Source: Eledone cirrhosa (taxonomy: Eukaryota). Taken from it: DNA of 64,000 nt. A program made the position numbers and the translations under genes. Where the stretch lies: positions 23,870,001 to 23,934,000 of the forward strand of contig OZ024760.1 of assembly GCA_964016885.1 (NCBI GenBank), given 5' to 3'. The notes beneath the pieces are model-generated. The model was not told the origin of the DNA. It did not search any database and saw only the letters and a program-made list of their open reading frames with translations. Below, piece after piece: positions 4,376-45,966 of the stretch. Each line of letters opens with the position of its first letter. Position 1 is the stretch's first letter.

Positions 4376-4521
4376 ACATGGAACTCTTTTAACCATATTT
4401 TGATCTTATATATTATGTATACTCCAGTCCTACAAATTGTAGAGTGCTTCTTATCCGATATCTTCATTGCTTTATTGTACTACAATAAAACTCACCTCCT
4501 ACATATATATATATATATATA

Positions 4522-4923
4522 TAGAAGGTGAGTAATATTGTAGAACAATAAAACTATGCATATATCAGATAAGTAGCACTCAACAGTTGGTAAAACTGGA
4601 GTATATATGATAAAGAAGAAATTAAAAGATGGTTAAAAGAGTTCCATATATTTTATTATGCGCATTTCAAATACAAAATCAACCTGGGACAAAAATTGTG
4701 TTCTCATCAGATAAAATAAGGTAACATGATATGAGGCATAATAGCACTTGTTTACAGGAAAGTACTACATGATATGAAGACCTAGCACTTTCCTGTAAAC
4801 AAGTGCTATTATGCCTCATATCATGTTACATTATTTTATCTGATGAGAACACAATTTTTGTCCCAGGATGATTTTGTATTCGAAATGCGCATAATAAAAT
4901 ATATGGAACTCTTTTAACCATCT
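4522..4923. mobile_element. Fold-back hammerhead element, diverged relative of 4085-4501 in opposite orientation
   Basis: About 4627-4765 inverted with about 4785-4923; long arm on the left ends at (TA)n 4502-4522; hammerheads at 4650-4717(-) and 4833-4900(+). Confidence 0.8.
4833..4900 (+). ncRNA. Minimal type-I hammerhead ribozyme
   Basis: attttat CTGATGA(4840) gaacacaa..ttgtattc GAAA(4882) tgcgca TA ataaaat. Confidence 0.85.
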
Positions 4924-5073
4924 AGAAGGGTCGGTGTATATATGTGCTAAAAACCAGAGCCAAATCTCACTCAAATCTTACTTTTCTTTTTAAATAATAG
5001 GAAAGAACTGTTGGACAAAGCTGTGTGTGTGTATATATATATATATATATATATATATATATATATATATATA

Positions 5074-5232
5074 GGAAAGTGTATAACCCTGACGGCAGAG
5101 CTCAAGCCGTTTCGACGGCTGAGCTCTGCCGTCGGGGTTATACACTTTCCTATTACCCACTCTACTACCCTAAGTATTGAGTACTCTGGTGAGTTATGGT
5201 CCATCTGGTTCCTTGCCACACTTCATTCGTTT
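5074..5232 (+). mobile_element. Short (TA)n-flanked hairpin-plus-tail element, copy 1 of 6
   Basis: ggaaagtgtataaccctgacggcagagctc..gagctctgccgtcggggttatacactttcc hairpin, then tail acccactctactaccctaagtattgagtact..ttcgtt. Confidence 0.85.
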
Positions 5233-5546
5233 TATATATATATATATAGAGAGAGAGAGAGAGAGAGAGAGAGAGAGAGAGAGAGAGAGAGAGAGAGAGA
5301 GAGAGAGAGAGAGAGAGAGAGAGAGAGAGAGAGAGAGAGAGAGAGAGAGAGAGAGAGAGTTAGTTAAATCTTAGACAGGTACAAAAACAGAGAGGCAGTA
5401 CAAATAGTGGTTTATTAGGTTCACGCTTTTGAGAGTGTAGGGAGGGGTACGTTTTGATCATAAGCCCTTCATCAGGAGAAAACTGACTGGGTATGAAGAG
5501 AGTTCCAAGGGTGTGTGTATGTATGTATATATATATATATATATTT

Positions 5547-5970
5547 AACAAATGTTAAACAAGGTTCATTGATTAATCAATGAATATAGTTTTACAATAG
5601 ATTAGAAGCACTCAACAAGTAGTTTTCTGGAGTTAGTAATATTAATTCAAAATATTAATAAATATAGACATTCACGTAAATTCGGAGGTGCTGTGCTGTT
5701 TTTCAGTACGTCCTCATCAGATAAAATATATAAATTGATGTCTTACATACCTCAACTGTGCTGATGGTTCAATTCCAGTCTTGGCAGTCTGGAATTGCCA
5801 AGACTGGAATTGAACCATCAGCACAGTTGAGGTATGTCATACATCAATTTATATATTTTATCTGATGAGGACGTACTGAAAAACAGCGCAGTACCTCCGA
5901 AATATATATAATAAAATATATTTTTTGATTACGGGAATGTCTATATTTATTAATATTTTGAATTAATATA
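5547..5970. mobile_element. Fold-back hammerhead element in (TA)n
   Basis: 5639-5786 inverted with about 5795-5970 (centre about 5790); the left arm has a deletion through stem III and a tail of about 90 nt. Confidence 0.8.
5855..5917 (+). ncRNA. Minimal type-I hammerhead ribozyme
   Basis: attttat CTGATGA(5862) ggacgtactg..cagtacctcc GAAA(5899) tatata TA ataaaat. Confidence 0.85.
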
Positions 5971-6370
5971 TATATATTTATATATATATATATATATATA
6001 TATACATATATATACATATATATATATGAATTTGTTTTGCGAGGTTTTTGATATGAAATCGTGTGTCGAAACAAATATTGTTATACTTGGGGAGGGTCAT
6101 ATTGTTATAATAATATTGCCAGAAATAAGTCTATATATATATATATATATAGTCATGTCTGTATTTTTGACCGTTGGTCAGTCAGTGATAAACATTGATT
6201 GCTAAATGAATTAACTATGGAGGTATAAAAGATACAGAAGCGAAAAAGAAAACCAACCAAACAGTGAGTGTGTTCTGTGATTATTTCTGGCAATAGTATT
6301 ACAACAGTAACCCTCCCCAAGTATAACAATATATAATATATATATATATATATATATATATATATATATA

Positions 6371-42895: not shown

Positions 42896-42919
42896 ATAAC
42901 AACAACAACAACAACAACA

Positions 42920-43295
42920 ATTGTTTCTACTTTAGGCACAAGGCCAGCAAATTGAAGTGGAGGAGAACGTCGATTAAATCGACACCAGTACATTACTGGT
43001 ACTTTATTTTATCGACCCTGTAAGGATGAATGGCAAAGTTAACGTCAGCGGGATTTGAAATCAGAACATAAAGTGCCATAACTCTATGCTGCTAAGCATG
43101 GTCTCTGACGTTCTAGCGATACTGTCAATCAATGTTACCCTCAATGTTTTCTGATTTAAGCACAAGACAAGGTCAAACATTTTGGGGTGAGGAGAAAGTC
43201 AATTAATACGACCTCAGTCCGTTACTGGTACAATATGTTGTCGACCCCTTAAGGATGAAAGGCAAAGTTGATTACAGCAGGATTTGAAATCACAA
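42920..43295 (-). mobile_element. Two tRNA-derived SINE copies
   Basis: ttgtttctactttaggcacaaggccagcaa..actggtactttattttatcgacc..ggatttgaaatc. Confidence 0.85.
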
Positions 43296-44599
43296 TGTAG
43301 TGATATTTGTAAATGCTCTAACGATAGTTACAGCTCCTAGTCTAGATATTTTGTGGAATTTATGAGTAGGCACCTGTATAACCTGATTCTCAGGGGGTGT
43401 AATTATGACATACGGCGTCTCTTGGAAATCTTTGAAGCCGTGTGTGAACATGCAGTTTGTCACCTTTGTGTACGACATCAATTAGATTTAAAAATATTAG
43501 TATAATTTAGTTGAAAAACAATGTAACAATATGGCGCCCATTATGCCTTAAATATGGCGGAGAATGTGAAAATGGCGCAGAAAGATGAAGCAAATAAAAT
43601 TGAAATAAGATAAATAATGAAAAGAAAATAGAAAAGGAAAGATAATCTAAGAATACATATATATATATATATTTGGGAGTGTATATGTGTGTGTTTCTGT
43701 ATATACATATATATAAATATACATATATATATATACATATGCATATATATACATATATCTATATATATGTGTGTATACATATATATATATATACATTGTG
43801 TATATATATATATACATATATATATATACATGTGTTTGTATATATATATATATATATATATATACATGTGTTTGTATATATATATATATATATATATACT
43901 TATATACATACATTGTCAAGAATACATATATATATATATGGGTGTGTATATGTGTGTGTTTCTGTACATATACATATATATAAATATACATATATATACA
44001 TATTCATATATATACATATATCTATATATATACGTGTATATATATATATATATATACATGTGTATATATATATATATATATATATATATATATATATATA
44101 TACATATATATATACATGTGTTTGTATATATATATATATATATATATATATATATATATATACATATATATATACATGTGTTTGTATATATATATATACA
44201 TATATATATATACTTATATACATACATTGTCATATACTCTCTATTACACACTAAACATACTTCCTTTATCCTATGACACATACTCGTTAATACATACACA
44301 CTTACATACATATCACAGTTAGATACTTTACACTTACACATACACACGTTTAAATTCAATACATACACTCACACATACACATCCACACATCTCATGGACA
44401 TACGTTAACACTATCAGATACTTTACACACACACTAAATAACTTTAAAGCACATATACAGTACACACTTTCAAATTTACATACACTCACACATAGATAGC
44501 CGCTACTACTAACACACGTATATACGCATACACACTATATTTAATACTTTTACTGCCTTAAAAAAGTATCCACGTTTCAACATACAGCTACACTCACAT

Positions 44600-45210
44600 A
44601 ATTGTTTCTACTTTAGGCACAAGGCCAGCAATTACCCAGTGCATTACTGGTACTTTATTTTATCGAACCCGTAAGGATGAAAGGCAAAGTTAACCTCGGC
44701 GGGATTTGAACTCAGATCGTAAAGGGATGTAACTATGCTGGAAAGCATGGCGTCCGACCCTCTACCGATACTGCCAATCCACCGAACGGTTTCTTATATA
44801 GGCACAGGGCCAGCAATTTGGGGGGAGGGGAAAGTCGATTAAATCGACCTCAGTGCGTGACTGGTACTTTATTTTATTGACCCCGTAAGGATAAAAGGCA
44901 AATTTAACCTCGGTGGGATGTGAATTCAGACAGTAAAGGACCGTAACTCTATGCTGCAAAGCATGGTGTCCGACTCTCTACCGATACTGCCAATCCACTG
45001 CCCTTTTTATCATAGTTTCTTATATAGGCACAAGGCCAGCAATTTTGCGGGATGGGAAAATCGATTAAATCGACCCCAGTGCGCGACTGGTATTTTATTT
45101 TATCGACTACGTAAAGATGATAGGCAAAGTTAACCTCGGTGGGATTTGAACTCAGATCATAAAGGGCCGTAACTCCATGCCGACCCTCTACCGATACTGC
45201 CAATCCTCTA
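44600..45210 (-). mobile_element. Three head-to-tail SINE copies
   Basis: Three runs of ggcacaaggccagcaat..gttaacctcgg..ctctaccgatactgccaat. Confidence 0.9.
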
Positions 45211-45540
45211 CCACCTTACACTCACACATAATAACGACACAAACACACTCACACTCACCTGTTACCATGACTACCATGACTACCTAACAGTTTGTCGTGT
45301 TTCCCTCTATATTTTCGATTTCTTTTCTTTACATGGATCTTCTTTGTTTCTGTTTCTCCTTTGGGATCCTGTCCCTATTTTGTTCTCTTGAAGAAGGGCT
45401 TCAGTCTGACACGACACACCGAAATTTCTTTTCCCCTTTTTCATATAAAGCGTGAAACTAATAAGTCATTTTATACCTATGTTTATTGTCTCCTAGAACT
45501 GTGTATATATATGTATGTATATATATATATATAGAGAGAG

Positions 45541-45966
45541 AGATTTTGAGTATATGTTGGTTGTATACCAACACCTCAGTATGCAGATTGGAGCACTCGA
45601 CGAAGTGCGCAGGTTGGTTTGGTTACTCCGGAGTAATGTAAAATAAGATAAAATAAATAAGTCAAATGTTTAAAATTTAGCTTCGTTTATTACTGCTATA
45701 TATATTTCGGTGACAGCCATCTTTGGCTGTGACCCCTTCAGGCCGTCCGAATTAGTGTGGTATAGATAAGTACATATGTTGTTGAGGTGTATAACCTTGT
45801 CGACAAGATAATACACCTCAACAACATATGTACTTATCTATACCACACTAATTCGGACGGCCTGAAGAGGTCACAGCCAAAGATGGCTGTCACCGAAATA
45901 TATATAGCAGTAATAAACGAAGCTAAATTTTAAAAATTTAACTTATTTATTTATTTTATCTTTTTA
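45541..45966. mobile_element. Fold-back hammerhead element
   Basis: 45639-45800 inverted with 45801-45966 around cttgtcgacaag; left arm has an extra tail of about 95 nt. Confidence 0.85.
45857..45911 (+). ncRNA. Minimal type-I hammerhead ribozyme
   Basis: acggc CTGAAGA(45862) ggtcacagcca aaga tggctgtcacc GAAA(45895) tatata TA gcagt; the mirror copy reads CTGAAGG. Confidence 0.8.

Follow-up and report, generated by a model that had tools for sequence, protein, structure and literature searches.

In the 64,000-nucleotide (nt) stretch of the Eledone cirrhosa genome analysed here (the window; assembly GCA_964016885.1, contig OZ024760.1, positions 23,870,001 to 23,934,000 of the forward strand), a series of TA-flanked elements can be seen, several of them palindromic. 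Judged by their sequence, these are 5'-truncated, head-to-head (TA)n insertions of Penelope-like retrotransposons (PLEs) with Hydra-clade protein motifs. Their order is (TA)n, inverted short arm, sense arm, motif, tail and (TA)n, the motif being a conserved predicted hairpin termed H1. The short arm ends a few bases before H1, and the long arm ends a few bases before the place of a second hairpin, H2. The features of the window are listed below.

4087..4502, plus strand: palindromic stump of family 2, with inverted short arm, sense arm with hammerhead core (4314), H1 and tail; long end at 4502; (TA)n on both sides
4421..4448, plus strand: H1 of the 4087..4502 stump; the short arm terminates 4-7 nt upstream
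4471..4489, plus strand: predicted tail hairpin, family-specific, differing in sequence between families
4524..4923, minus strand: palindromic stump of a family-2 relative; hammerhead core 4710-4665; short arm off TA
4575..4602, minus strand: H1 of the 4524..4923 stump, by pattern match and fold
5074..5232, plus strand: short stump of family 0; H1 5159-5185; canonical hammerhead core not found
5546..5965, minus strand: palindromic stump; H1 5607-5633; hammerhead cores 5720-5701 (minus) and 5862-5881 (plus)
6371..6504, plus strand: short stump of family 0; H1 6433-6459
10727..10923, minus strand: short stump of family 0; H1 10772-10798; arms 99% alike
16083..16281, plus strand: type I hammerhead with long stem II (about 16083-16167), then long-loop H1 (16229-16281), without tail; by eye and fold
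17750..17924, plus strand: short stump of family 0; H1 17853-17879
26499..26969, minus strand: palindromic stump of family 1; H1 26558-26580; hammerhead core 26686 (minus)
27283..27439, plus strand: short stump of family 0; H1 27368-27394
33869..34010, minus strand: sixth stump of family 0; degenerate H1 33914-33940; inverted arm not seen
45541..45962, minus strand: palindromic stump; long-loop H1 45592-45634; short arm stops 5 nt upstream

The window was searched with the pattern ACTCY-N(8-35)-GAGTRCT. Ten matches were found where 0.30 were expected, and none of 100 shuffles attained ten. With a stricter version of the motif, 24,559 sites were counted in the 3.0-Gb genome of the species, against 83 for the reversed control. 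All five motif positions assigned to the long elements in the initial annotation (4421-4448 on the plus strand; 4575-4602, 5607-5633, 26558-26580 and 45592-45634 on the minus strand) were verified by pattern match, and the similar end reported at 16229-16281 is a long-loop version with TA almost directly after it. Of the six short elements said to carry the motif, five do so exactly (5159, 6433, 10772, 17853 and 27368), but the sixth (33914-33940, minus strand) reads GAGTATT. The tails, put at 80-95 nt, keep to that lower bound but extend to about 106 nt; the distance from motif to outer TA, put at 47-60 nt, was roughly right at a measured 45-62 nt. In the longer elements of the window, the hammerhead core lies 87-108 nt upstream of the motif.

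Stated as the range permitted by TA ambiguity, the short arm ends relative to ACTC at -7 to -4 in the 4085 element, at -9 to -5 in the 5547 element, at -7 to -5 in the 26499 element, at -5 in the 45541 element and at -8 to -5 in both the 5159 and 10772 elements. In the 6433, 17853 and 27368 elements the script halted early (-9, -25 and -10) at mismatches or an internal deletion, and the ends read by eye are at -8 to -5. The claim of a stop 4-5 nt before ACTC is upheld; the permitted ranges extend to -9 in the 5547 element. The 4522 element, flagged earlier as an exception, is one: its short arm ends at -24, not adjoining TA, and was probably clipped later.

The same relation was observed in a motif-blind sample of 138 stretches of 10 kb and the window (1.444 Mb), from which 125 inverted repeats with one arm adjoining TA and a tail of 30-200 nt were collected. 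The motif occurs within 60 nt on either side of the arm end in 87 of the 125 records, compared with 261 of 2000 random positions. The short end overlaps -10 to -2 relative to ACTC in 84 of these 87 motif-bearing records, with modes at -7 for the shortest reading and -5 for the longest. Across 16 clusters, the standard deviation (SD) of the short end is 1.9 nt when measured from ACTC, 6.5 nt from GAG and 15.4 nt from the hammerhead core. A random placement of ends relative to the motif was thus checked and does not hold; the positional rule is real and quantitatively strong.

Measured from H1, the long end is variable (SD 12.8 nt across 16 clusters). It had been proposed that one stem positions both starts of reverse transcription; the short end is indeed tied to H1, but the long end is tied to H2, a second copy of the motif just past the long end and before the ATG, which was absent from the initial annotation. 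The layout is hammerhead, short end, H1, spacer, long end, H2, ATG and open reading frame (ORF), and the tail is the stretch between the two hairpins, that is, H1 and the spacer. Mapping on a double-motif copy was possible for 59 of the 87 elements, the remainder having no close reference or longer tails, and in 56 of the 59, from three families, the long end overlaps -10 to -2 before H2. Two double-motif patterns gave 475 and 512 matches genome-wide against 1 and 0 in their controls, and among 61 double-motif copies an ORF start follows in 39. Stumps do not contain H2, which is present only in tandem or ORF-bearing copies; among the copies listed, it ends 18-62 nt before the ATG. In a metagenome set of 78 related loci, 50 have at least 150 nt before the ORF; two motifs precede the ORF in 24 of these, one in 11 and none in 15, with a spacing of 55-83 nt, while the reverse-strand control gave two in 1, one in 3 and none in 46.

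The predicted hairpin takes the form RCTC-stem-loop-stem-(TT/TA/TC)-GAGY-RCT, with a 2-nt bulge on the 3' side. For covariation, 261 instances were reduced to 53 clusters, and three pairs inside RCTC/GAGY were scored. With the 2-nt bulge, 139 of 159 cells of the inner stem are paired against 93.5+-5.0 after shuffling, a level reached in 0 of 5000 shuffles, although these counts are not probabilities because the clusters are related by descent. Other bulge registers give far less pairing. The exchanges observed include T-A/C-G, A-T/G-C and C-G/G-C/T-A/A-T. On the sense strand G-U exceeds A-C by 21 to 7, so that folding of this strand is favoured. The flanks of the hairpin hold at most 0.6 bits per column; with its covarying stem, the motif is not simply as conserved as its surroundings. 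Among 66 distinct metagenome hairpins, 152 of 198 cells are paired in the same register against 102.9+-5.7 shuffled, and 60 of the 66 carry GAGCACT.

Some copies continue beyond the long end into an ORF. The near-complete copy L171 comprises an inverted tail-bearing arm, a pseudo-long-terminal repeat (pLTR), ATG, an ORF with one frameshift, a 3' untranslated region and a hammerhead, and stops at the short site. A search with 245 aa of its reverse transcriptase (RT) gave 150 scored matches of at least 95% identity, some of them in open frames of more than 800 aa. ORFs of 806-808 aa have a YRDDG core and, by eye, a C-terminal IYE...YFG...H...E...N block, so that a single ORF would hold an RT followed by a GIY-YIG-type endonuclease (EN). 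The Pfam search with the ORF gave zero significant matches and the PDB search nothing significant; PF26215 is present in 13 of 16 homologues. SDKTNN in the protein gives DKT instead of DKG, and at the RWK motif family 2 has RW followed by I or T, not K. In L253, CNCRIKNKC (CxCX5C linker), CNLC (CxxC) and CLH (CxH) were found, and a CCHH was not seen by eye. DKT, CxCX5C, CxxC, CxH and a C-terminal EN are listed as Hydra-clade features (PMC8557442), and the clade, assigned by these protein motifs, is likely Hydra. The (TA)n insertion typical of that clade is also present. Unit lengths, 3,334 nt in L171 and about 3,540 nt in family-0 tandems, exceed the "generally under 3 kb" of the Hydra clade, which is worded as a tendency and not a rule (PMC8557442). 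Naiad PLEs, with an N-terminal EN, a CxC domain and DKA, were ruled out, the EN block being C-terminal and the motif DKT.

The stumps of the window can be linked to such copies. Family 2 has the ORF-bearing copies L171 and L253, and families 0 and 1 each lead into their own ORF start: family 0 is linked to an ORF in L154 and L340, and family 1 extends into H2 and an ORF in L369-L398. ORF fragments precede family-0 ends in L154 and 5547-type ends in L093, the latter a close relative of the 5546..5965 stump. A degenerate pattern for the EN C-terminus returned chance or decayed matches only. Hammerhead cores with stems I-III were predicted by pattern and by eye in families 1 and 2 and the 5547 family, and the pattern search found no canonical core in family 0. 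Rfam scans reported no family for the H1 hairpin or the minimal hammerheads, giving among the matches listed (150/561, 92/92) sub-threshold hits only, nearly all microRNA models on microsatellites or long palindromes. A start of ORF-bearing copies at the hammerhead cut was unsupported; their 5' ends show no common position, and just three lie near -45 to -51. The family-0 pLTR (5074-5232; L359) is abundant and apparently recently active, with tandem ORF-bearing copies, and has a GCCGT-CGAA-ACGGC hairpin at the hammerhead position that is possibly a variant ribozyme.

The two arms differ in how far they reach. Of 80 palindromes of three families that combine a short with a long arm, 35 have the greater 5' reach in the short arm and 13 in the long arm, with equal reach in 32 (35/48, p = 0.002). 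Against these 80, at most 4 tail-anchored copies have a long inverted partner, with 10 unclassified, which implies that the two ends are not chosen independently. Arms within one insertion are 0.94-0.97 alike and arms of different copies 0.86-0.92, a difference that fits one source RNA or locus. The geometry of the arms also fits the earlier suggestion that two separately made complementary DNAs (cDNAs) are joined head to head. Copying of whole palindromes was ruled out, as spans and junctions differ among copies of families 1 and 2, and 5' ends of long arms are not clearly more frequent at the short site than an even spread would give. In family 2, inner 5' ends cluster at one CATATG site 174-175 nt upstream of H1 (window about 4247; L004-L230), in 14 of 27 short arms and in 8 of 27 of the long ones; the junctions there frequently carry some untemplated bases. 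The RNA may begin at this site, or the RT may halt there. A less sharp clustering is seen in family 0 at -60 to -70.

Taken jointly, the identity of the elements, the location of their ends a few bases before tandem hairpins, and the role of H1 and H2 as likely binding sites that set two RT starts form a reading considered probable, and we infer that it is in the RNA, at the start of reverse transcription, that the hairpins act. Action in DNA instead, with the EN recognising the hairpins in the element or an intermediate, cutting upstream and trimming the ends, is unlikely. Craig et al. attributed the tail to EN-mediated resolution (PMC8557442), the Drosophila virilis tail is reported to be needed for EN recognition of plasmid DNA (PMC11167929), and RCTC/GAGYRCT is conserved in sequence, with GAGCACT as the prevailing metagenome form. 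However, the inner stem covaries without sequence conservation and requires a single strand; the excess of G-U over A-C is on the sense strand, whereas the cDNA is antisense; and the ends of the Poseidon tail coincide with the positions at which RT begins on RNA in vitro (PMC11167929). Slightly less credible still is that the hairpins direct RNA cleavage or 3'-end formation upstream and that RT starts at the resulting 3' ends. Identical genomic ends are predicted by this route, so that genome sequence alone does not separate it from internal starts, but Poseidon initiates internally, 3' extensions leave its main product unmoved (PMC11167929), and an RNA cut at the short site could no longer serve as template for the long cDNA. 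Self-priming, in which one cDNA folds back or an antisense template primes itself and the hairpins are stop signals for the second arm, is a shade more improbable than either. It has been proposed for head-to-head PLE palindromes (PMC3846280) and is favoured by the greater likeness of arms within an insertion and by the 32 near-equal pairs; yet in 35 of the 80 the short arm carries 5' sequence absent from the long arm and cannot be its copy. In L171, moreover, the inverted arm exceeds the neighbouring sense repeat in reach by ~100 nt and bears a tail lacking at the far end, and copies without an inverted arm terminate at the same sites.

Very improbable, and the least favoured, is that the ends are set by TA microhomology or descent while the hairpins do other work, for example translational control before the ATG. 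The closeness of H2 to the ATG and the microhomology of 2-3 nt at 45 of the 87 ends speak for it. Against it, the -10 to -2 interval, which holds 84 of the 87 ends, contains only 17% of the TA/AT dinucleotides located within 50 nt, and 27 of the 87 ends have a microhomology of 0-1 nt. All 36 TA-adjoining 3' ends in the family-2 sample are at two sites (19 short, 17 long), while 17 other TAT/ATA sites are never used; 2 more 3' ends have no adjoining TA. The offset also stays constant while hammerhead distance, loop and spacer vary, and the flanks are poorly conserved. The ends are therefore not set by the nearest TA alone. Microhomology or descent as the sole cause is largely refuted; TA probably fine-tunes the start without choosing it, and a translational role may coexist.

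Several observations weigh against the reading in which H1 and H2 set two RT starts. TA or AT is present at the start site in 61 of 63 cases. The test of H2 rests on three families, and only 4 TA-adjoining ends were mappable in the metagenome loci (2 near H1, 1 near H2, 1 elsewhere), where the G-U bias is weak (9 versus 4 A-C). The common descent of the covariation clusters also counts here. Predicted stability is low (z -2.5 to +0.2), with the full hairpin absent from the minimum-energy fold of some copies; this would fit a fold stabilised by protein and also argues against a strong free hairpin. Long with long (L072, L019) and probably short with short combinations (L056, L174) occur. Among the 125 asymmetric palindromes, 38 are without the motif; 5 of these have relaxed variants at -8 to 0, and among the rest are artefacts, decayed copies and members of other tailed families. 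Both ends are fixed in at least one family that has no such motif. No RNA contig was found on the region, and two RNA runs over the pLTR gave no cover, which is uninformative on expression.

Other sequences of interest were also observed. TA-targeting tailed families without this hairpin, with fixed short and long ends 42-65 nt apart, are found at L190:76-267 (minus strand) and L399-L410, and also at L100, L084, L098, L141, L182 and L188; the L190 family has 620-nt tandem units. In each tail in the window (4471-4489, about 5560-5600, 26503-26549 and 45545-45580) a further hairpin, specific to the family, is predicted and terminates a few bases short of the long end. At 7383-7560, 11490-11620 and 22028-22090 there are hammerhead cores in decayed or clipped remnants that apparently belong with the stumps. 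More TA-flanked palindromes, of other families, are at 19195-19760 and 48264-48567, the former sharing sequence with a tailed family in L188. A 68-bp tandem array of an H1-containing unit occurs at G000:C1:378731815-378732165. Outside the PLEs, a 1141-aa open frame at 36500-39925 (plus strand) resembles by eye a non-long-terminal-repeat retrotransposon RT with a C-terminal restriction-like endonuclease, and is followed at 41063-42687 by a 59-bp tandem array resembling its 3' part. Two ORF fragments at 23883-25328 (plus strand) are like the RT of long interspersed nuclear elements.

In the proposed mechanism, the GIY-YIG endonuclease would nick both strands of (TA)n, and two RT units, probably a dimer, would sit on H1 and H2 of the transcript. 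Each unit would start about 3-9 nt 5' of its own hairpin and extend one of the nicked strands, aided by 0-3 nt of TA pairing; the two cDNAs would stop at different 5' points and then be joined head to head. This putative mechanism is plausible and the simplest model for the palindromes; support comes from the Poseidon element, with two internal starts, both strands extended and a dimer predicted (PMC11167929). Small RNA structures bound by an RT set the start or stop of synthesis in the hepadnavirus epsilon stem-loop and the template-boundary elements of telomerase. The likeness to both would be one of analogy only; epsilon is protein-primed from a bulge, whereas here the primer would be the target DNA and the start outside the stem.

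Much of the setting is already known. Tails, inverted 5'-truncated copies, TA targeting and hammerheads have been published (PMC8557442; PMC4209133; PMC3846280), as have two RT starts for one Poseidon element (PMC11167929). The Hydra clade shares the (TA)n target, short type I hammerhead (predicted here), DKT/CxCX5C/CxxC/CxH, inverted 5'-truncated copy and tail (PMC8557442). In the portions of that source available no hairpin is described and tails of 30-40 bp are attributed to EN resolution, whereas the tails here are about 50-105 nt, units are 3.3-3.5 kb, and family 0 is without the canonical core. In the consensus sequences of its supplement, the hairpin is seen in Hydra-2_Amil and Hydra-2_Ajap, twice at the start of Hydra-1_Ajap and imperfectly in Hydra-1_Amil and Hydra-1_Crog, with coral and sea cucumber as sources; it was not seen in the Hydra-1_Obim consensus. 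A string search of the supplement outside the Hydra records gave no clear case among the matches listed (9/10, 2/12, 22/22), where line breaks may hide matches. The Poseidon element of Anolis, PAc, likewise has two internal RT starts bounding the tail, both strands cut and extended, an AT-rich target and a predicted dimer; its starts, however, are separated by about 30-40 nt and fall within the ORF, in an AC-rich stem loop, and the available text describes no repeated positioning motif (PMC11167929), whereas here both starts would precede the ATG and each would have a conserved hairpin just after it. Penelope of Adineta vaga also has an inverted pLTR and an optional tail on one arm, but was explained by antisense self-priming (PMC3846280), which the arm geometry here disfavours. 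No conserved, duplicated hairpin associated with the two ends came up in a full-text literature search that largely excluded subscription journals and Repbase notes, and this cis-element is probably unpublished.

The choice of RT start site and the formation of tail and inverted repeat are called open in the parts available of PMC8557442 and PMC11167929. A duplicated, covarying cis-signal at both ends reduces this question to a simple mutagenesis experiment, and the cognate family keeps intact natural ORFs, as seen from the long open frames among the L171 matches. The motif marks element boundaries at 24,559 or more sites in the genome of its own species. More tentatively, and somewhat short of an even chance, the Hydra clade could use a two-site RNA ruler, in which a dimeric RT-endonuclease on two hairpins starts, with each subunit, a cDNA from one cut strand at a fixed distance. 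If true, this ruler would account together for the tail length, the rule of one short and one long arm and the head-to-head repeats, and would amount to a portable signal, 25 nt long, with which a telomerase-related enzyme starts reverse transcription internally. Since PLE RTs and telomerase RT are sister groups, an RNA element by which the former are positioned would bear on the origin of the use of defined RNA templates by RTs.

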